Both the position numbers and the translations under genes were made by a program. From a virus: a stretch of DNA of 44,568 bases. The notes beneath the pieces are model-generated. The model was not told the origin of the DNA. It did not search any database and saw only the letters and a list, made by a program, of their open reading frames with translations. This document shows positions 4,969-34,622 of the stretch, piece after piece; positions within the stretch are counted from its first letter, which is position 1; each line of letters opens with the position of its first letter. The DNA is taken from UHGV virus genome UHGV-0171754. The stretch is one strand, 5' to 3'.

Positions 4969-5065
4969 ATCGAAATCCTTTGAGTTGTGAGCATTCGCCC
5001 AGTACCGTTAATGTTACCTTAGATTTACGCGCTCGCAAAATCGCCCGCTTTCGCGGGCAATTTGC

Positions 5066-5767
5066 TTACTCGTCGCCCATTTTAGCGATGATTTCACCAG
5101 CCTGTTTCGTCAGATCGGTGATGCCGAAGCTGTGGCCCATAGAGATTTTCGACTTCACATCTTCGACAACATGCGTCGGTTTGCTCGGCGCACCACCGGC
5201 TGGCGTGCCAGCCAGGACGGATGCAAAATCGGCGTTATTACGGAACTCTTTTTCAAGCTCTTCCATAGTCAGCGCGGACGGTTTACCATCCTGCAAGACA
5301 CGCACCTTCAAGCTGCCGTCTTCGCCGTCTTCCAGCGTCAGGCGGTCCATTACGTGGCGTTGCATGATTCCAGCATTCTTACCGAACAGCTTCGAGGCCA
5401 AATCTTTGGCAGCGCTGCCGATGGTTAGATCGTGGATCTGCTTGCGGTAGGCTTCGATTTTTCCCGATGTGTCCGCTTCATGTTTTGCGAACTTATCTTT
5501 CCAGGACTTATCGATCGCTTCGAGGTCGCCATTTTTGCGCGCGGCGGCTTCCTCTTTCTCTTTCGCAAGGCGCTCAGCTTCGGCGCGACGTTCGGCTTCT
5601 GCTCTCTTCTCGCTAACCAGCTTCGCGTTGTTGTCTTTCAGACCCTTGATCTCCGCCTGTACTTCTTCGGCGGTCATGAACGTGGATTTATACCCATCGC
5701 CATCGGCAACAAATAAAGCCTTCATGCCTTCTGGCAACGCGTCATATTCTGCTTTAGTAAGTTTCAT
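5066..5767 (-). CDS. Scaffolding protein
   Basis: 233 aa from ATG (MKLTKAEYDAL) with AGGGGGA RBS; charged coiled-coil-like (KRAEAERRAEAERLAKEKEEAAARK); sits between morphogenesis and capsid genes. Confidence 0.6.
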   Translation of the reverse strand: MKLTKAEYDALPEGMKALFVADGDGYKSTFMTAEEVQAEIKGLKDNNAKLVSEKRAEAERRAEAERLAKEKEEAAARKNGDLEAIDKSWKDKFAKHEADTSGKIEAYRKQIHDLTIGSAAKDLASKLFGKNAGIMQRHVMDRLTLEDGEDGSLKVRVLQDGKPSALTMEELEKEFRNNADFASVLAGTPAGGAPSKPTHVVEDVKSKISMGHSFGITDLTKQAGEIIAKMGDE

Positions 5768-5857
5768 GCTATCCCCCTGGGATTGTGGCAAAGCGGGCCA
5801 CCCGCTTGACTTCACGCCTTAATATTATCAGCGATAAAAATAATCGCAAAATTCGCT

Positions 5858-5902
5858 TGCACTGCGGGAATTGGTTGCGCTATATTGGTTGCACACCAAC
5901 AA
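5858..5902 (+). promoter_or_regulatory. Sigma70-like promoter (TTGCAC-18-TATATT) with two TTGGTTGC octamers and a TTGGT-N5-ACCAA palindrome over the start site
   Basis: -35 at 5858-5863, -10 at 5884-5889, octamers at 5874-5881 and 5888-5895, palindrome at 5888-5902; near-identical to the leader at 15946-15960. Confidence 0.5.
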
Positions 5903-5915
5903 TGAGGACATAAAA

Positions 5916-6680
5916 ATGAGACTGACGAAAGACATTAAAAATCAGATCCTAGCTAACATCCTGCGCGACCACGAAATCGCTACCGAAGCCAAAACAATCA
6001 TGATGGACTCTCGCGACCTGGCGTACGCAATCACGCTGGACTGTATGCCGGACGGCATTCGCACATTCGCCGCGCTACGCGAGCATATCAAGGCAATCCG
6101 CGATGACCAGTCGCAGATGTACGGCGTCAGCGTATACACCAACAAGGCGACGTATAGTTATAACACCGACCGCCCGAAGGGTATCGGCAGCGTTTACGAC
6201 GCCACCTTTGAAATCAACGCAGGCGGAAATGTTCGCACCTTGTCCTTGAGCGGTGACGGTCGCCAATACCGCGTACATCGCGGATACTGGGAAGAGAAAT
6301 ATATGAATAAGCTCTCGCCTGATCTCGGCGATATCGTTCCGGGGTTCGAGACAGTTATGCTCGCGTCAGTGTGCGAAGTGGACGAGGAAGGGAAAGCGCT
6401 GCCGATATATCTCCCACGCGGTCGCGCAGACTACCCGGCGGACCATGACTTCTGTAAGCGCCTGGACCGCAACGACAAGGCACGTCGCGAGTTGCGTGCG
6501 AAGTATGACGCGTTCAAACTCACCGTTACCGGTGTACTGGACCTGCACAATACTGACAAGAAGCTGATTAAAGCATGGCCTGAAGTTGAGCAATTCATCC
6601 CATACCCGGACAAGCCAAAATCCACGGCGGTGGCGCTGGATGTGAAAACACTCAACGAGATTTGCGGCATTCCTCGCTAA
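5916..6680 (+). CDS. Hypothetical protein (254 aa), opposite-strand insertion in the morphogenesis module
   Basis: ATG (MRLTKDIKNQ) with GAGGA RBS 7 nt upstream; own promoter and a bidirectional terminator; no recognisable motif. Confidence 0.7.
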   Translation: MRLTKDIKNQILANILRDHEIATEAKTIMMDSRDLAYAITLDCMPDGIRTFAALREHIKAIRDDQSQMYGVSVYTNKATYSYNTDRPKGIGSVYDATFEINAGGNVRTLSLSGDGRQYRVHRGYWEEKYMNKLSPDLGDIVPGFETVMLASVCEVDEEGKALPIYLPRGRADYPADHDFCKRLDRNDKARRELRAKYDAFKLTVTGVLDLHNTDKKLIKAWPEVEQFIPYPDKPKSTAVALDVKTLNEICGIPR

Positions 6681-6685
6681 CGAAA

Positions 6686-6706
6686 AAGGGGCCATTATGG
6701 CCCCTT
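6686..6706. terminator. Bidirectional intrinsic terminator between convergent genes
   Basis: 9 bp stem aaggggcca/tggcccctt with 3 nt loop, A-run upstream and T-rich run downstream. Confidence 0.6.
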
Positions 6707-6925
6707 AATTATTTGCTGCAACTCCAGCACCTGCGCCCTTAGCTTCGCCCCGCATTCCATATTTTTCACGTCAATCATCAAATCTTCGTCGGGGTCCGCA
6801 GACGGGTTATCGAACTTGCACGGCGGTCGCAGTGCCGATTCCGTTAGCGGCATCAACGGCACGCTGCTTGATCCGCACGCGCTCAGCGTCAAAACTACAA
6901 TCAGGGCGGTTAGGGCGCGTAACAT
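6695..6925 (-). CDS. o-spanin (Rz1-like outer membrane lipoprotein)
   Basis: 76 aa from MLRALTALIVVLTLSAC; lipobox LSAC, proline-rich mature part; reading frame overlaps the 3' part of the i-spanin gene. Confidence 0.55.
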   Translation of the reverse strand: MLRALTALIVVLTLSACGSSSVPLMPLTESALRPPCKFDNPSADPDEDLMIDVKNMECGAKLRAQVLELQQIIKGP

Positions 6926-7136
6926 ATTTAACAACCTCTTTTGTGATAGTCCGGTATTCCACGTCGCGGGCTTGTTCTGCCTGCACGGAGCGCTCAATTA
7001 CTTTAGTTTGCTGCCGTTGGGCTTGGGATTGCGCTTCTTGCGCCGCCTTCGCCACTACGCCAGCGCGGTAGGAGTCACCTAGCCAGAATCCTACCGCCAG
7101 ACCCATAACCAGTCCAATAGCCGCATATTTAATCAC
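6807..7136 (-). CDS. i-spanin (Rz-like)
   Basis: 109 aa; N-terminal transmembrane segment (IKYAAIGLVMGLAVGFWLG), then charged coiled-coil region and a C-terminal Cys; GTG start overlapping upstream stop. Confidence 0.6.
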   Translation of the reverse strand: MIKYAAIGLVMGLAVGFWLGDSYRAGVVAKAAQEAQSQAQRQQTKVIERSVQAEQARDVEYRTITKEVVKYVTRPNRPDCSFDAERVRIKQRAVDAANGIGTATAVQVR

Positions 7137-8232
7137 GCCATAACCCCCGGTTTTTAAGCTGTGCGATAGTCATTAGTTCGCCGGAATCGGTGAACATCTT
7201 CGGGACTTTCACGCCGCGCATAATCTGGTCGGCGCGTTGCACCCCGTATAATTCCTCCAGGATATGGCGCGGCTGGCGCTGCACCCATGAGAAGAAATCA
7301 GTCTGCGCGTCGACCTGCTCACTCAGCAATCTGCCAGCGTCAGCCTTCAGCGCCGGACGCTTACCACTGGGCCAATCTTCCATACCTTTGACTTTCCACG
7401 TCTCCGTCGAACGGCAGCAATAATGTAGCTTGCCTGGACCAGCGCCATATTGTGATCCAGCCACCACTTTCCCGCCGCGCTTTCCTTTGGTGTCGGGAGT
7501 AACATCAACCGGATAAAACAGGCGATCGCGTAGCTGGCACATGGGAGAAGTATGCGTGTCCAATGTAGATAACCATTGGCGACCTTCGAGAATATCGTCA
7601 TTTGCTTTTACCATTAGTTCGCGGGCTGTCGCCGCATAGTGGTTGACTGCGGACTTAACAACGCTTGAGATAGCTTGCGCACTACGACCGCCGAGCGCGC
7701 GCCTCACGTCCGCAATAATTTCCATAGTCGGCTTGCCCTGGATGAATCCGGCGCGCACCTGATTGCCGATCTGCGTCCTGGTCCACTCAGAAAGTGAGTC
7801 AGGCCATTGCATCATCGTATTACCCTGGAACGGGTTTTTAATTGCAGTCGCTGCGATCTGCGCACCGGTCACTACGCCAACCACCTCGACTGCAGGTACG
7901 GCGACCACCGGCTGGATCGCTGCCGTTAATGTGTCGGCGAGATAATCAGCCTCCGTGTCGGCAAACTCCTGAAGGCTTTCAGCCAACGCCTTAAACTCGG
8001 CGCGCAGTTCCGTTTTTACGGTCTTGTCGATTTGCGTTAGCAGGGTTGAAAGTGCCTTGTTGTTCATTGACGATTTGCCATCAAGCAACTCAGTCAGCTT
8101 TCCCAGTAACGTAGGCCGGAACTTCTCCCACATAGCCAGCACCCTTCGCGCCTGGTCATTGCTCAGGCGCTGGGTGAAGATGTGTCGGCGGATCATTCGA
8201 TCCGCCATATATTGATTAATTGTCTTCGCCAT
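7129..8232 (-). CDS. Head morphogenesis protein (Mu F / SPP1 gp7-like minor head protein)
   Basis: About 367 aa from ATG (MAKTINQYMADR); immediately downstream of portal, overlapping its stop. Confidence 0.7.
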   Translation of the reverse strand: MAKTINQYMADRMIRRHIFTQRLSNDQARRVLAMWEKFRPTLLGKLTELLDGKSSMNNKALSTLLTQIDKTVKTELRAEFKALAESLQEFADTEADYLADTLTAAIQPVVAVPAVEVVGVVTGAQIAATAIKNPFQGNTMMQWPDSLSEWTRTQIGNQVRAGFIQGKPTMEIIADVRRALGGRSAQAISSVVKSAVNHYAATARELMVKANDDILEGRQWLSTLDTHTSPMCQLRDRLFYPVDVTPDTKGKRGGKVVAGSQYGAGPGKLHYCCRSTETWKVKGMEDWPSGKRPALKADAGRLLSEQVDAQTDFFSWVQRQPRHILEELYGVQRADQIMRGVKVPKMFTDSGELMTIAQLKNRGLWRD

Positions 8233-9736
8233 TGTCCGCAACCTTGTCCGGGTCTTCTTCGGTAGATTCTACCGCATCCGGGGACATTTGAGGCAATGGA
8301 TTCTGATTTCGCAGTTCGTCTTCCACCTGCTCGACGGTTTGCGAGTCATCAATTACGCCCTGGGCCATCATCCACTTGATAAAGTCCGCCAGACGGACCG
8401 TACCGGTCTGCACCCCCGCCATCATTGCGGTCATAAGCTGTGCGTCCACCGTGATCTCGGTGTAGAACTTATTCAGCGTTACGCGTTGATCTGCGGTGTC
8501 GCCAGTGAACAGCTTGACGATTTGCAGCGCACGGTTGAAAGCCTTCTCAACGTTACCGGCGATCAGTGACAGGATACTGTTATCCGTCTGTGCATCATAG
8601 GCCGCCTCGGTTGCCGTCTTAGGTGCGGTCCCCTTCTCGACCAGGGCCGCGCCCAGTTTAGCCATTTGCAATTCGCGTCGCTCACACAGCGCAACTGACA
8701 GGTTTCGCTCCTCCGCCTGAAGCAGTTTAGCGTCCATGTTCTGACCAAGGATGACGCCTTTAGTGGCCCCTAGCGCGATGCCGCCCTTCAGGTTTTTATC
8801 CGCCCATGATTGGGTCAGACCGGTCGCAATGAGTGTAGGTTGGCCCACAATGTGCGCAATCTCGGCGACGTCTGCTTCGGCGTTGTAGTGCTTAATGTTG
8901 ATTGACGCGATATCCGCCAGCGGTGCGGCATCTGGTGTTGCATTGTTATCCACCGCGCCACACCAACAGAAAGGCAGTTGCGTAAGCGCGTTACCGGCGG
9001 CATCCACCAGTGGCACAAGGTCGGTGCGGGTGAATCCCCGCGGCAAGTCCATTTGCACCTCGGACGTGTCCGCATTGTAAAACCAGCGGCGGGCGTGTGC
9101 CTTACCCGCAATCATGCGAAGCTCAGTCCAGATCGTTACTTCGTGGTTTGCGAAGTCGTCCGGGTCTACGGTGCTGATTTCGTCCGTCTCCTTCAGCACG
9201 ATTAGCGTGTCGACCCCGTGGGTCTGTCGCCAGTTAATGATCTGTTCCGCCGTATACAGGCGGATAAGCGGGCGGTGTGCCGCCATTTCAGCGGCTGTCT
9301 GCGGCACTACGTTACCCAGTTCGTCAAAATGCGCCTGGCGGTCGTAGTCCACCATAAAGCCAGCGCGGCCCGATTGCAGCACTTCCGACATAGCTCCGCG
9401 CAGGAGTTGCGCCAGCGGCATCCCGCTGCCGTCTACGTCATCAATCAGGTCAGCCATTGCCCCGGAAAGGTCAATACTCACCGGTTTGGCGAAGGCGACG
9501 CCTAACAGGGCATTCAGTGTGCGGGCGGTGGCATTCAGGAAGACAGCACGTTGCTTATATGCCTTATAGCGCGCACGCGATTTCGGGTCGGTGGTGTCGC
9601 CGCTGGCTGGGTGTGGCAGGTACAATGGCCCGCACGCCTTTACGGCGCGCTCCCCTGCTACGCAGTCACGGATCATTTTCCACTCAGGCGCGATGCGTGC
9701 ATAGAGCGGGTGCTGGTTGTCAACGTTAACGGTCAT
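8216..9736 (-). CDS. Portal protein
   Basis: 506 aa; AAGGAAA RBS; position between terminase large subunit and head morphogenesis gene. Confidence 0.8.
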   Translation of the reverse strand: MTVNVDNQHPLYARIAPEWKMIRDCVAGERAVKACGPLYLPHPASGDTTDPKSRARYKAYKQRAVFLNATARTLNALLGVAFAKPVSIDLSGAMADLIDDVDGSGMPLAQLLRGAMSEVLQSGRAGFMVDYDRQAHFDELGNVVPQTAAEMAAHRPLIRLYTAEQIINWRQTHGVDTLIVLKETDEISTVDPDDFANHEVTIWTELRMIAGKAHARRWFYNADTSEVQMDLPRGFTRTDLVPLVDAAGNALTQLPFCWCGAVDNNATPDAAPLADIASINIKHYNAEADVAEIAHIVGQPTLIATGLTQSWADKNLKGGIALGATKGVILGQNMDAKLLQAEERNLSVALCERRELQMAKLGAALVEKGTAPKTATEAAYDAQTDNSILSLIAGNVEKAFNRALQIVKLFTGDTADQRVTLNKFYTEITVDAQLMTAMMAGVQTGTVRLADFIKWMMAQGVIDDSQTVEQVEDELRNQNPLPQMSPDAVESTEEDPDKVADNGEDN

Positions 9737-13231: not shown

Positions 13232-13723
13232 TTATGCGGCGTTACGCCCGATTTTCTCGGCAACGTCCCACTGCTTACCATCAAACAACGCCTGTCTGCC
13301 GATTGCACGGCGCACCAGACCCTTAAGCACTTCCCCGCCTTGCTTGCGGAACAGCGGCAGCGTAGCACGTACCTTCGCCCAGTCGCCCAACCGCACCGCG
13401 TCATCGAAATCATTCGCGACGCCATCCGGTACGATCGGACCCGGACCGGCGTTGATTACCAGGTCCACCAGCGCGTCAAATTGCGCCTGGTTAATGCTCG
13501 GATGTGCGTATTTGTTCACCCAGTCCTCGGCATACGCCACATCGCGCTTGAGCAATGCCAGCGCTTCCTCGCGGGTAATGCTTCGTGGCGGATTAGTGCC
13601 AGTATGACCATAACCCCAGGTGTACAGGCCGCGGGCCTGCTCTTTCTTGGTCGCGAAATACGGCACCGGGCTGAAAGCCTCCCATGCTGCCGTAAATCGT
13701 AGACCGTTATCACTGAATCGCAT
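13232..13723 (-). CDS. Endolysin (lysozyme-like glycoside hydrolase)
   Basis: 163 aa; EAFSPVPY...WGYGHTG segment resembles phage lysozymes (family assignment GH24-like is from memory); adjacent to holin-like genes. Confidence 0.75.
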   Translation of the reverse strand: MRFSDNGLRFTAAWEAFSPVPYFATKKEQARGLYTWGYGHTGTNPPRSITREEALALLKRDVAYAEDWVNKYAHPSINQAQFDALVDLVINAGPGPIVPDGVANDFDDAVRLGDWAKVRATLPLFRKQGGEVLKGLVRRAIGRQALFDGKQWDVAEKIGRNAA

Positions 13724-13955
13724 GTTTTACCCCATTTAAAACAGCATTACGCAGGGTGCGCAATGCAAACAGCCAGATTAACGCGGTCCAGGTGGTATCC
13801 GATACGTCTCCTGTTTGCAACAGTCCAATAAGACAGATCATTGCCGTTAACAGATACAGCACCCGGCCTAAGATGCCATCCTGGACGGACGGCGCATACA
13901 CGTTAAACAGGGACGAAGCCCCGATGATAACAAACAACAGGACGGAGATAATCAT
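13710..13955 (-). CDS. Holin/antiholin-like small membrane protein
   Basis: 81 aa, hydrophobic segments; overlaps endolysin start and upstream gene stop. Confidence 0.5.
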   Translation of the reverse strand: MIISVLLFVIIGASSLFNVYAPSVQDGILGRVLYLLTAMICLIGLLQTGDVSDTTWTALIWLFALRTLRNAVLNGVKHAIQ

Positions 13956-14242
13956 TTTGCGCCCCCCGGAAGGTGTAGCGTCGCAATTGTCTCCCGGATC
14001 CGGTCAGCTATTGGCATCCAGAAGATGGCAGTTACGAAGCCCAAACCGGCGACAGTGCGCTCCCCCGACAAACCAGCCCACTCAGCGATAGCCGGTGCGC
14101 CAAATATGGCACACAGGAAGCCAACTACAACATACAAAACGAAGTTTAGCGGCCCCTTCGTAGCCTCACCATGAATGCGTGCGCCTACGAAGCCACCCGC
14201 CAGACATGCCAGGGCGAATAGCCACTCGTTTAGCTTATCCAT
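13952..14242 (-). CDS. Holin-like membrane protein
   Basis: 96 aa with at least two hydrophobic segments; first gene after a terminator, directly upstream of endolysin. Confidence 0.5.
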   Translation of the reverse strand: MDKLNEWLFALACLAGGFVGARIHGEATKGPLNFVLYVVVGFLCAIFGAPAIAEWAGLSGERTVAGLGFVTAIFWMPIADRIRETIATLHLPGGAK

Positions 14243-15624: not shown

Positions 15625-15930
15625 TTATTTCGCAAGCCGGGCAAATAGTTCGCGCTGGGCTTTAATCCGGGCGACGTTTGCCACTGCCGTCTCACCGATC
15701 CCGAAGCGATACGCCAGGCGCTCGCGGGAGAATGCCTGCGCGTATGCATGGATGGCCTTACGCAACGGCCTCAGTTCGTCCATGCTGGCGCCCATACCGT
15801 AAAGCGCGCTGCGAAGTGATTGATGCGCCAGTATCGCTACCTGAAGCGCCGAGTCTACGTTGCTGTTTAGTGCCTTCGCTTCGTCCAGCTTTGCCACGGC
15901 CAGGGAGTAATTCCAGATAATCGCTTTCAT
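15625..15930 (-). CDS. Putative HTH regulator, first gene of the leftward regulatory/lysis operon
   Basis: 101 aa; GAGGA RBS; C-terminal segment FGIGETAVANVARIKAQRE resembles a helix-turn-helix; promoter/operator immediately upstream. Confidence 0.5.
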   Translation of the reverse strand: MKAIIWNYSLAVAKLDEAKALNSNVDSALQVAILAHQSLRSALYGMGASMDELRPLRKAIHAYAQAFSRERLAYRFGIGETAVANVARIKAQRELFARLAK

Positions 15931-15945
15931 TGTTCAGTCCTCATG

Positions 15946-15995
15946 TTGGTGTGCAACCAATATATCAGGGTGCCAGGCGGGGCGCAACCAATATT
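15946..15995 (-). promoter_or_regulatory. Promoter with extended -10 (TGaTATATT), two TTGGTTGC octamers and TTGGT-N5-ACCAA operator
   Basis: Minus-strand reading attggttgcgccccgcctggcaccctgatatattggttgcacaccaacatgagga ATG; leader nearly identical to 5884-5910. Confidence 0.5.
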
Positions 15996-16145: not shown

Positions 16146-16198
16146 GCAGTCTCAGACGAGGGGGGTGACAGACCCCCCGTCTAGTCTGAAAGACTGGG
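16146..16198. other. Element B hairpin: interrupted palindrome agacgagggggg-tgacaga-cccccc-gtct plus agtct-gaa-agact
   Basis: Same arms as the window-junction palindrome but different loop (tgacaga versus ccaatga). Confidence 0.6.
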
Positions 16199-16305
16199 GT
16201 GCTGTCCCGCTGTCCCGCTCCTCCCCAGGCCGCGTCATCCGGGGCGGGACAGGGGTGCTGTCCCGCTTTGTCCCGCCTCCTGTTTGTCCCGCTTTTTGTC
16301 CCGCT
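16199..16305. repeat. Element B: array of 7 GTCCCGC / GCGGGAC heptamers, homologous to window positions about 80-150
   Basis: Copies at 16204-16210, 16212-16218, 16245-16251(rc), 16259-16265, 16270-16276, 16285-16291, 16298-16304; block gggacaggggtgctgtcccgc...tttttgtcccg shared with element A. Confidence 0.8.
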
Positions 16306-16349
16306 TACTTTATGCAGTTTTATTGCATAACTATTCACTATATTTACAC

Positions 16350-16471
16350 TACACGGCAACCAATGCGACCAGCTAAAAACACTCAAAATGGCAACCAATG
16401 CGCGCAAAATTTAATCTCTTAGCGATATGGGAATTCCCATACCGGCAACCAATGCGCGCAAAATTTAATCT
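16350..16471. repeat. Iteron-like direct repeats (28 bp x2 plus one partial copy) with a 16 bp perfect palindrome between them
   Basis: ggcaaccaatgcgcgcaaaatttaatct at 16390-16417 and 16444-16471, partial copy ggcaaccaatgcg at 16354-16366; palindrome tatgggaattcccata at 16426-16441; the last repeat overlaps the 3' end of the primase gene. Confidence 0.75.
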
Positions 16472-18739: not shown

Positions 18740-19069
18740 TTATTTGGAAGTTTTATTATTGCGTACCCAGGAGCGCACTGTGCTCTGATTAATTCCGGTC
18801 AACTCGGCAATCATCGCCCAAGATTTGCCCTCGGCGCGCAAACGGATAACCTGTTTTTTGTATTCTTCCATTTCTTCATTGTGCTTCTGCAGCTTGCTCG
18901 CCGCCGTACCGTTGAGCAATTCCAGCCTGGCGCGCAATTCTTTTTCGGTAAGTCGCAGACGTTCGATTTCAAATAGCACCGCACCCACGGCATCGGTATA
19001 CGCCCATGACCGGCTTGTCTCACTGCAAACAGTCTTCGTTAACATTTCGATTGCGTCGTTTACATTCAT
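18740..19069 (-). CDS. Transcriptional regulator with C-terminal HTH
   Basis: 109 aa; GAGGG RBS; C-terminal GKSWAMIAELTGINQSTVRSWV is helix-turn-helix-like; coiled-coil centre. Confidence 0.55.
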   Translation of the reverse strand: MNVNDAIEMLTKTVCSETSRSWAYTDAVGAVLFEIERLRLTEKELRARLELLNGTAASKLQKHNEEMEEYKKQVIRLRAEGKSWAMIAELTGINQSTVRSWVRNNKTSK

Positions 19070-19083
19070 TGCTCTGCCCTCAG

Positions 19084-19129
19084 TTGGTTAATGACCAACG
19101 AAACTACACCTAAAACCGCAAGGTGTCAA
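19084..19129 (-). promoter_or_regulatory. Leftward early promoter (TTGACA-17-TAGTTT) with TTGGT-N5-ACCAA operator in the leader
   Basis: -35 = rc of 19124-19129, -10 = rc of 19101-19106, palindrome ttggttaatgaccaa at 19084-19098 between -10 and RBS. Confidence 0.45.
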
Positions 19130-19245: not shown

Positions 19246-19275
19246 TTGACACCCATCCTGCAACCAATCTATTAT
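19246..19275 (+). promoter_or_regulatory. Rightward early promoter (TTGACA-18-TATTAT) with GCAACCAA octamer in the spacer
   Basis: -35 at 19246-19251, -10 at 19270-19275, octamer at 19260-19267; about 195 nt leader before first ATG. Confidence 0.5.
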
Positions 19276-20059: not shown

Positions 20060-20311
20060 ATGGCACGCTTCACGCTAATCGAGGCGGTGGATTCCCGCGA
20101 CCAGCGCCCGTACTATTGGCTATTCGAACGCATCGGCAGCTTTCAGTCACGCGTTGCCGTAATAGATAAACGCCGTAACACCCCCGCGCAAATTAAGCGC
20201 ACCACCTTTACTAACCCCGACTTTTATATTTGGGCGGATTCCAATCTGGAATATGTTCGCTTCGCAGTTGCATCCGAAGCAAAAACAATTGACCGCTGGG
20301 AGACAAAATAA
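20060..20311 (+). CDS. Small hypothetical protein (83 aa)
   Basis: GAGGA RBS 7 nt before ATG. Confidence 0.5.
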   Translation: MARFTLIEAVDSRDQRPYYWLFERIGSFQSRVAVIDKRRNTPAQIKRTTFTNPDFYIWADSNLEYVRFAVASEAKTIDRWETK

Positions 20312-29291: not shown

Positions 29292-29296
29292 ATTGG

Positions 29297-29325
29297 TTGC
29301 ATAACCGTATTGGTTGCATTATATT
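29297..29325 (+). promoter_or_regulatory. Candidate promoter (TTGCAT-17-TATATT) with two direct TTGGTTGC octamers
   Basis: Octamers at 29295-29302 and 29310-29317; second ends 2 nt before the -10, same spacing as at 5874/5884 and 31235/31245. Confidence 0.45.
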
Positions 29326-31893: not shown

Positions 31894-32469
31894 ATGTACG
31901 GCGAATACGAAATATCTGGTAAACAATTCCACATGGCGGCAATGATAGCAAGCATCGAGTTTGACCAGTGGCAATACAAGTCTGACGCGTGCAAGCAAAG
32001 CAGACTCGTCGGTGTGCTTGGCGAAATGTTTGCAGGCATGTACCTTGAGGGTCAGGCGGGTGGGCGTAGTTGTATCCCGCAAGGCTTACTGATGCGTACA
32101 GGCCTGTTTAGCGCCAACACCATTGACCGCGGCGATATTATCATGGTCGGCAAGCGCAAGGTAAAATCCGGTCCCGACTTCCGCGAACATGTGATCGATG
32201 CCGTCTGGACCTACGAGGTTAAGGCCACCAGCGGCATACGTCGAGGACTGGTGGAGGCACGTTGCGCTCGAGAATACCTTACCCGTCGCGTTGCAGGGGT
32301 TATCCTGGTGGGCGTATCGTTCGGGCAACATAGTGCCAGCGGCGTTATTGAGGATATTGCGGAGCCATACGTGATAGTGAACGACTGGCCCCTGGTGGAA
32401 GTGGATGGAAAGGAATATTACGAAAGCCCGCTTGTGCGGCGCAAAATGGACTGGGAAAACTCAAACTAA
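31894..32469 (+). CDS. Hypothetical protein (191 aa), possible PD-(D/E)XK-like nuclease
   Basis: GAGGA RBS; segment GDIIMVGKRKV...VWTYEVKATSG loosely fits a D...ExK pattern; last gene of the rightward operon. Confidence 0.45.
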   Translation: MYGEYEISGKQFHMAAMIASIEFDQWQYKSDACKQSRLVGVLGEMFAGMYLEGQAGGRSCIPQGLLMRTGLFSANTIDRGDIIMVGKRKVKSGPDFREHVIDAVWTYEVKATSGIRRGLVEARCAREYLTRRVAGVILVGVSFGQHSASGVIEDIAEPYVIVNDWPLVEVDGKEYYESPLVRRKMDWENSN

Positions 32470-32473
32470 AAAC

Positions 32474-32491
32474 AGGGGCCACATGGCCCCT
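32474..32491. terminator. Bidirectional terminator between the rightward operon and the tail fiber gene
   Basis: Stem aggggcc/ggcccct with 4 nt loop, A-run upstream, T-rich downstream. Confidence 0.6.
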
Positions 32492-32496
32492 TATCC

Positions 32497-34320: not shown

Positions 34321-34339
34321 AGCTAAATCCTCGTATAAA

Positions 34340-34371
34340 TTGGTTGCATTCGTGATTGAGCGGTGTAATAC
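34340..34371 (+). promoter_or_regulatory. Candidate promoter (TTGCAT-16-TAATAC) with TTGGTTGC octamer for the lipoprotein gene
   Basis: Octamer at 34340-34347; -10 at 34366-34371. Confidence 0.4.
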
Positions 34372-34403
34372 TAAAACTCAACCAAATATAGGGGGATGAT
34401 ACC

Positions 34404-34622
34404 ATGAAAACTTTAATTATGATTTGTGCGGTTCTTCTGTCGGGTTGTGCCAACATGCCGACTAAAGTCTGCGACGCGACATATGTTAATAGCGGCATGG
34501 AATACTCGGTCCCGGTGTTTGGGGTTGCCGACTTTAGTGGACACAAAATGATCAAGGCTGGGTATCCGTTCAACTTCCAGTATGTGTCGGTCGACCACTT
34601 CAAAAGCACAACCTGCAAATAA
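34404..34622 (+). CDS. Small lipoprotein (72 aa), opposite-strand insertion next to the tail fiber gene; candidate superinfection-exclusion protein
   Basis: Signal peptide with lipobox MKTLIMICAVLLSGC; AGGGGGA RBS; own promoter and terminator hairpin. Confidence 0.65.
   Translation: MKTLIMICAVLLSGCANMPTKVCDATYVNSGMEYSVPVFGVADFSGHKMIKAGYPFNFQYVSVDHFKSTTCK

Follow-up and report, generated by a model that had tools for sequence, protein, structure and literature searches.

The locus examined here raises the question of what a plus-strand gene is doing among the minus-strand head genes of a small coliphage siphovirus. The stretch of DNA analysed (44.6 kb; hereafter the window) is a complete Dhillonvirus genome of the HK578 / SSL-2009a / EP23 group, and the gene order of SSL-2009a is collinear with it, in reverse orientation. 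Its minus strand carries an HTH gene and the primase-helicase, small ORFs, the lysis genes, and then the packaging, head and tail genes. A preliminary description had proposed that the plus-strand gene, of 254 codons, is a self-contained unit with early-type control, and had guessed at a host-takeover or anti-defence role. The main features of this part of the genome are as follows.

~19.07 kb down through position 1, wrapping to ~32.5 kb, minus strand: the block described above
19.3 to 32.5 kb, plus strand: replication and recombination genes
5066..5767, minus strand: head scaffolding gene, left neighbour on the late strand (SSL-2009a annotation)
5904..5908, plus strand: ribosome-binding site GAGGA, 7 nt 5' of the nmad5 ATG (read from sequence)
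5916..6680, plus strand: nmad5 coding sequence, 254 aa, Pfam PF18757 Nmad5 (ATG start, full-length Pfam match)
6686..6706, no strand assigned: hairpin AAGGGGCC-ATT-ATGGCCCCTT in the gap between nmad5 and the o-spanin gene, 9 bp of which 6 are GC, terminator-like on both strands (terminator scan)
6695-6997 and 6807-7136, minus strand: overlapping spanin genes, right neighbours on the late strand (SSL-2009a annotation)

The gene and its neighbours

The ORF at 5916-6680 lies where it had been placed, between the scaffold and spanin genes, and its product matches Pfam PF18757 (Nmad5) over its full length, with residues 1-253 aligned to profile positions 1-206 of 206 (E 3.9e-61; 207.1 bits against a cut-off of 27). 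It also matches phrog_1965 (E 5e-63), a family without assigned function. The earlier statement that no known motif could be recognised was therefore wrong, and the orthologue had in fact been studied in 2025. Comparison with ten Dhillonvirus orthologues gave dN/dS values of 0.07-0.18, with variation mostly confined to residues 51-120 and both termini nearly invariant. The gene is conserved in ~150 Dhillonvirus records, and 154 phage records match the 1.3 kb around it, the best at 97% identity. Because a full-length family match is joined by purifying selection and by conservation across the genus, nmad5 is a real gene, and its identity as Nmad5 is near certain. Two opposite-strand ORFs inside it (6366-6695 and 6431-6670, minus strand) were judged spurious, since both the Pfam match and the purifying selection fall on the plus-strand frame. 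A recent horizontal insertion was also considered and rejected, as the GC content of nmad5 (0.540) matches that of the genome (0.546).

Its counterpart in SM_A8 / PhiSMA8 (CDS7, 5047-5811) is 88% identical without gaps and, like that of PhiSMS22, is an orthologue: the same scaffold-spanin locus, the same length of 254 aa, and a conserved K216 with its surrounding motif. The gene, the family and the phenotypes of the Dhillonvirus orthologue have thus already been described.

The locus had also been credited with a bidirectional terminator, and this holds in part. The terminator scan calls the 6686-6706 hairpin on both strands, but its T tract is poor on the plus strand. The minus-strand scaffold and capsid genes were assigned no sigma-70-like promoter of their own by the promoter scan, in 5768-5915 or at the hairpin, so late transcription must cross the hairpin and run through nmad5 in antisense; termination on the minus strand is therefore incomplete. 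Similar hairpins occur at 995-1019 and 32469-32493. The spanin genes themselves (6695-7136, minus strand) are found within the head module, between the head-morphogenesis and scaffold genes, and the holin and endolysin genes (13232-14242, minus strand) lie ~6 kb from them. As regards anatomy, nmad5 is a self-contained accessory unit on the strand opposite to the head genes.

Putative promoter, shared operator and cargo at the locus

The sequence upstream of nmad5 was compared with the early-region promoters of the window, and the following control features were read.

5857..5886, plus strand: putative sigma-70 promoter of nmad5, with -35 TTGCAC (5857-5862), an 18-nt spacer and -10 TATATT (5881-5886) (read from sequence)
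5870-5878 (in the spacer) and 5884-5892 (over the -10 and start site), plus strand: two copies of ATTGGTTGC
5885..5899, plus strand: palindromic operator TTGGTTGCACACCAA (TTGGT-N5-ACCAA), between the -10 and the ribosome-binding site of nmad5
15944..15964, minus strand: 21-nt exact copy of the nmad5 -10/operator sequence, at the leftward promoter TTGCGC-17-TATATT before ORF 15930-15625
18740..19069, minus strand: HTH protein of 109 aa (HTH_23 / Sigma70_r4_2), heading the leftward early operon, to which the primase-helicase also belongs
19084..19098, no strand assigned: third palindrome copy TTGGTTAATGACCAA, between the leftward early promoter (TTGACA-17-TAGTTT) and the HTH gene

The promoter ascribed to nmad5 in the preliminary description is best regarded as a candidate. 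Its match to consensus is weak (TTGCAC-18-TATATT, 8 of 12 positions, with a poor -35), and a generic promoter scan did not call the 5857-5886 site, but the promoter/operator block is conserved in Kenya-K19, SSL-2009a and EP23. The claim of an operator in common with the early leftward promoter fared better. From the nmad5 -10 onward the sequence reads TATATTGGTTGCACACCAACA, and positions 5881-5901 match 15944-15964 exactly over 21 nt in inverted orientation, far above chance; at both sites the 21-mer is followed by the ATGAGGAC context and an ATG, the second being that of the gene at 15930. Exactly three copies of the palindrome TTGGT-N5-ACCAA exist in the window (5885, 15946 and 19084, against 0 expected), each between a -10 and a ribosome-binding site, and SSL-2009a has copies at the same three sites. 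Its candidate regulator would be the 109-aa HTH protein, whose own gene follows the third copy.

The 9-mer ATTGGTTGC, which is nested in the 21-mer, extends this pattern, with 15 copies in the window where 0.57 are expected, and 14 in SSL-2009a. The copies (5870-5892, 15953-15992, 16356-16453, 19260-19268, 26350, 29292-29317, 31223 and 34339) are nearly always at promoters, where they supply the TTGCnn -35, sit in the spacer or cover the start site. Two are at nmad5 and two at the 15964 promoter; others are in the spacer of the strong rightward early promoter PR (TTGACA-18-TATTAT), at an internal early-strand promoter at 29.3 kb, upstream of a cor-like lipoprotein gene, and within the three iteron-like repeats that follow the primase-helicase gene. 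The motif looks like the operator of a genus-specific regulator. Taken together, the shared elements make it likely that nmad5 is under early-type control, and its candidate promoter may fire early; a search of the literature for a Dhillonvirus transcriptome found none.

Other repeats were noted in the same part of the genome. Three direct copies of AAATTTTGCGCGCATTGGTTGCC occupy 16340-16470, at spacings of 35 and 54 nt, within the 530-bp non-coding region that follows the primase-helicase gene; they are arranged like iterons and could serve as an origin or in regulation. Two further regions rich in repeats, 16 kb from each other (12-300 and 16174-16340), have in common the hairpin CCCCCGTCTAGTCTGAAAGACTGGGG and, in either orientation, arrays of TGTCCCGC / GGGACAG. 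The former precedes the tape-measure gene and the latter lies within the big non-coding region, and both may be late promoters with activator sites. An Rfam search of the window gave no match.

In most Dhillonviruses, PhiSMA8 and SSL-2009a among them, a small extra gene stands between the shared operator and the nmad5 ribosome-binding site, whereas in the window and Kenya-K19 the operator is followed directly by nmad5. The extra gene of SSL-2009a (orf8; L001 4308-4637) encodes a 109-aa protein of phrog_24635, and that of EP23 (p08; L002 2317-2829) a 170-aa protein of phrog_3007, labelled RusA-like and with a weak beta-clamp-like match. The presence of such genes in most relatives means that the nmad5 slot behaves as a cargo site. 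A comparable arrangement is seen in the tail module, where a cor-type superinfection-exclusion gene (34339-34622, plus strand; 72-aa lipoprotein, lipobox LSGC) is likewise a self-contained accessory gene on the opposite strand of a late module, with a promoter (TTGCAT-16-TAATAC) that contains ATTGGTTGC. The products differ, Cor being a small lipoprotein known to act in exclusion, whereas Nmad5 is a cytoplasmic 29-kDa protein.

The Nmad5 family and its genomic settings

In Pfam, Nmad5 stands for 'nucleotide modification associated domain 5'. Searched with a profile, 1.84 billion representatives yielded 538 Nmad5 clusters (E up to 0.001; 50% identity), carried by tailed phages and prophages of Proteobacteria (Escherichia, Salmonella, Vibrio, Pseudomonas, Bordetella, Aeromonas). 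Fragments aside, the matches listed are stand-alone proteins of ~170-251 aa, with no fusions. Conservation was measured on 136 representatives and 65 diverse members. All signature residues of the family are present in the window protein (N-terminal R-L-T, G103-G104, T213..K216-L217..W221-P222-E223..P229 and L246-N247..G251-x-P253), and K216 falls within T213-x-x-K216-L217-x3-W221-P222-E223, the family's best-conserved motif. Among polar residues, near-invariance is limited to R2, T213, E223 and N247, a set that does not look catalytic. In the middle, Dhillonvirus Nmad5 proteins have an additional segment, which is more variable.

An AlphaFold2 model built on the 65 diverse sequences reached a pLDDT of 78 and a pTM of 0.76, whilst a run on only 7 sequences was too poor to use (pLDDT 53). 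The model begins with three helices, followed by a small sheet, a long helix and two short helices that bear the WPE motif; a flexible linker then leads to a short helix at the end. Confidence is low in the middle (residues 84-95 and 120-129). Foldseek found no match for it among solved structures in the PDB (best E 0.83), and a structure search of BFVD returned other Nmad5 proteins only. Searches of the PDB by sequence and by profile, and of NCBIfam, gave noise only, PADLOC gave no match, and the 65 family members compared with Pfam at E up to 1 revealed no consistent second family. The remote-homology and structure-prediction searches suggested at the outset thus placed the protein in the Nmad5 family, with no relative of solved structure. 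A predicted fold without known relatives lends no support to an enzyme, although a new enzyme might likewise show no recognisable catalytic fold.

The settings in which nmad5 is found elsewhere point towards early operons. In L008, a 49-kb contig syntenic with the window (identities of 66% for PolA, 64% for SNF2, 54% for the endolysin, 49% for SSB and 48% for the primase-helicase), nmad5 occupies third place in the rightward early operon and is followed at once by the homologue of window ORF 20060-20311; judging by this position, the Dhillonvirus copy seems to be an early gene that has moved, with an early-type promoter, into the head module. In a Salmonella prophage it stands between a gp2.5-like SSB gene and PolA. 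In Stx1 and Stx2 phages and in HK244, an Nmad5 gene (E 3e-71) directly follows N in the pL operon, downstream of annotated pL, oL and nutL sites, and this post-N gene is present in 211 of 5426 complete E. coli genomes. The lambdoid proteins (HK244 HK24401; SH2026Stx1 gp17) belong to the same family, match Pfam better than the window protein and are early by position; they differ in being 207 aa long, in having no middle insertion, and in that pL, subject to CI/Cro and N, drives their expression in place of a promoter of their own. The anatomy proposed for the window gene, a self-contained unit with early-type control on the opposite strand of the head module, proved right, and the comparison with L008 and the lambdoids supports an early-region origin.

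The Yuavirus genes have another setting. Those of PAC4 and SN1 lie between aGPT-Pplase1 and a dUMP hydroxymethylase-type thymidylate synthase, and among the phages compared only these sit in a thymidine-hypermodification cassette. Yuavirus Nmad5 (M6, SN1, PAC4) shares the Pfam family and the conserved C-terminal motif with the window protein, but is only 186 aa long, lacks the Dhillonvirus middle insertion, and is ~38-40% identical over the last 80 residues only; its flanking genes (aGPT-Pplase1, kinase, rSAM and PLP enzymes, thymidylate-synthase homologue) have no counterpart in the window genome. A survey of 124 co-directional neighbours at 20 non-redundant non-Dhillonvirus loci found PolA most often (6), followed by S24 repressors (4), exonucleases, PD-(D/E)XK nucleases and helicases, with SNF2 and SSB recurrent; the 5-hmdU DNA kinase family appeared once, at 1 of the 20 loci. 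In L010, an unrelated 46-kb siphovirus contig, Nmad5 (8001-8606) is a lone opposite-strand gene adjoining the major capsid gene, a second and independent case of placement beside capsid genes. As far as gene order can tell, the distribution supports the view that nmad5 came from, or belongs with, early operons.

Tmn escape and the function of Nmad5

The orthologue of the window gene is the nmad5 studied by Yamashita et al. 2025 (PMC11846954) in connection with Tmn, a membrane KAP NTPase defence. Tmn escape mutants of two Dhillonviruses carried nmad5 K216E or the equivalent K296E; reversion of the mutation restored Tmn sensitivity, and the engineered mutation conferred escape (PMC11846954). A phage deleted for nmad5 was viable and still sensitive to Tmn, with no growth defect reported, so that escape was seen for the K216E variant only; the gene could not be cloned, being toxic (PMC11846954). 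Natural losses are also seen: SM_S24 nmad5 is truncated after residue ~177 and lacks the conserved C-terminus, and this phage is reported to be still inhibited by Tmn, whilst Teewinot retains only ~38 codons of the gene. nmad5 is thus a dispensable accessory gene. The initial guess at a host-takeover or anti-defence function is in keeping with the K216E escape, the toxicity and the dispensability; deletion left Tmn sensitivity unchanged. A paper on Tmn synergy says nothing about triggers.

The reading that follows from the family name is that Nmad5 is an enzyme or specificity subunit of a base modification, whose product Tmn senses or is blinded by (Yamashita et al.). The Yuavirus position of the gene in PAC4 and SN1 agrees with this, as do methylase genes near nmad5 in some prophages and at several other loci, and in the window a Dam methylase could cooperate with Nmad5. 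That methylase, however, was the sole modification function in a Pfam scan of the window's 34 non-structural ORFs, which found no hydroxymethylase, 5-hmdU kinase, aGPT-Pplase, rSAM or PLP enzyme, in agreement with the SSL-2009a annotation. Even for the Yuavirus lineage, 5-NedU of M6 has been rebuilt in vitro from gp54, gp51, gp53 and gp52 alone, without Nmad5, and Dhillonviruses are sensitive to type I and II restriction relative to deazaguanine-modified phages. The lone 5-hmdU kinase neighbour, the conserved residues of non-catalytic type, the predicted fold unlike that of any known enzyme, and the post-N gene of the lambdoid Stx prophages also count against an enzyme, and the lambdoid carriers are not known to have modified DNA. 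We therefore consider this reading quite improbable: Nmad5 is probably not the DNA-modifying enzyme of its name, which most likely reflects adjacency in one lineage, where the cassette happened to lie in the early replication region. A role as replication or recombination accessory, such as a mediator or loader that acts together with the gp2.5-like SSB, the DUF2800 exonuclease or PolA, and linked to Tmn indirectly through replication intermediates, draws on neighbourhood evidence, namely the SSB-PolA flanks in the Salmonella prophage, the adjacent DUF2800, SSB and PolA genes in L008, the recurrent PolA, PDDEXK, exonuclease, SNF2 and SSB neighbours, and the pL operon that lambdoid nmad5 shares with exo, bet and gam. 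Genes of this kind abound in phage early regions, though, which makes adjacency weak evidence, and deletion and natural truncation are tolerated. The carriers moreover have no replication protein in common (lambdoids use O/P and the host polymerase, Dhillonviruses PolA and their own primase-helicase), so a conserved phage partner is unlikely, and we regard such a role as unlikely too, if less so than an enzymatic one.

Two further readings bear on the Tmn phenotype and on the location of the gene. Wild-type Nmad5 might be a mere trigger of Tmn, with K216E removing recognition, as the mutation of the equivalent lysine in two phages and the effect of its reversion would suggest; yet the deletion phage stays sensitive, the SM_S24 truncation removes the motif while Tmn inhibition is still reported, and a trigger gives no account of why phages keep the gene. 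We hold this to be very unlikely. A head assembly or structural protein, to which the head-module position and the capsid-gene neighbour in L010 might point, is the least credible of all and can practically be set aside: nmad5 lies on the opposite strand with its own early-type promoter, its homologues elsewhere are in early operons, and it is dispensable. Similarity to structural or assembly proteins, which the preliminary description had said would speak against its proposal, was looked for and found neither by sequence nor by fold.

We therefore lean towards the view that nmad5 is a dispensable, early-controlled accessory gene whose non-catalytic product acts through its terminal motifs on a host or nucleic-acid-associated target. 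On such a model, host RNA polymerase would transcribe nmad5 at the start of infection, after which a phage regulator bound to the shared operator, with the 109-aa HTH protein as the obvious candidate, would shut it off; antisense late transcription may add to the shut-down. The protein would be a non-catalytic alpha+beta protein and not a base-modification enzyme, and its invariant N-terminus and C-terminal motifs (T..KL...WPE...P and LN...GLP) would form a binding surface for a conserved host or nucleic-acid-associated component. Through this surface, Nmad5 may perturb host DNA metabolism or immunity early in infection, and the change of Lys216 to Glu may alter the interaction in such a way that the phage gets past Tmn immunity. 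Since the lineages that carry nmad5 have no replication machinery in common, we favour a host target, perturbation of which would explain both the toxicity upon cloning and why charge reversal in the motif, rather than loss of the gene, defeats Tmn. The molecular mode of Nmad5 is speculative.

A bolder proposal is that Nmad5 is a misnamed, widespread immediate-early family with a fold unlike solved structures, acting non-catalytically on a conserved host target, and that the Lys-to-Glu change converts it into an inhibitor or bypass of Tmn. We think this possible but doubtful. If true, the misnamed Nmad5 would be a new class of host-takeover or counter-defence factor, and a handle on Tmn sensing.

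The present analysis adds to what was known the shared operator regulon, the link to early operons, the post-N position in Stx prophages and the lack of support for the modification label. The regulon is a small, genus-conserved one comprising nmad5, the HTH/primase operon and the 15964 operon, and the wider ATTGGTTGC motif also marks PR and cor. For phage engineers, the nmad5 slot is a ready early-expression site, in which relatives already carry cargo. The label 'DNA modification enzyme', used in databases and in the 2025 Tmn paper, is unsupported outside Yuavirus-type phages, and the premise of models that have Tmn sense a DNA modification is accordingly a weak one. Found at immediate-early positions in very different phages, Nmad5 is a reasonable candidate for a general host-interaction factor.
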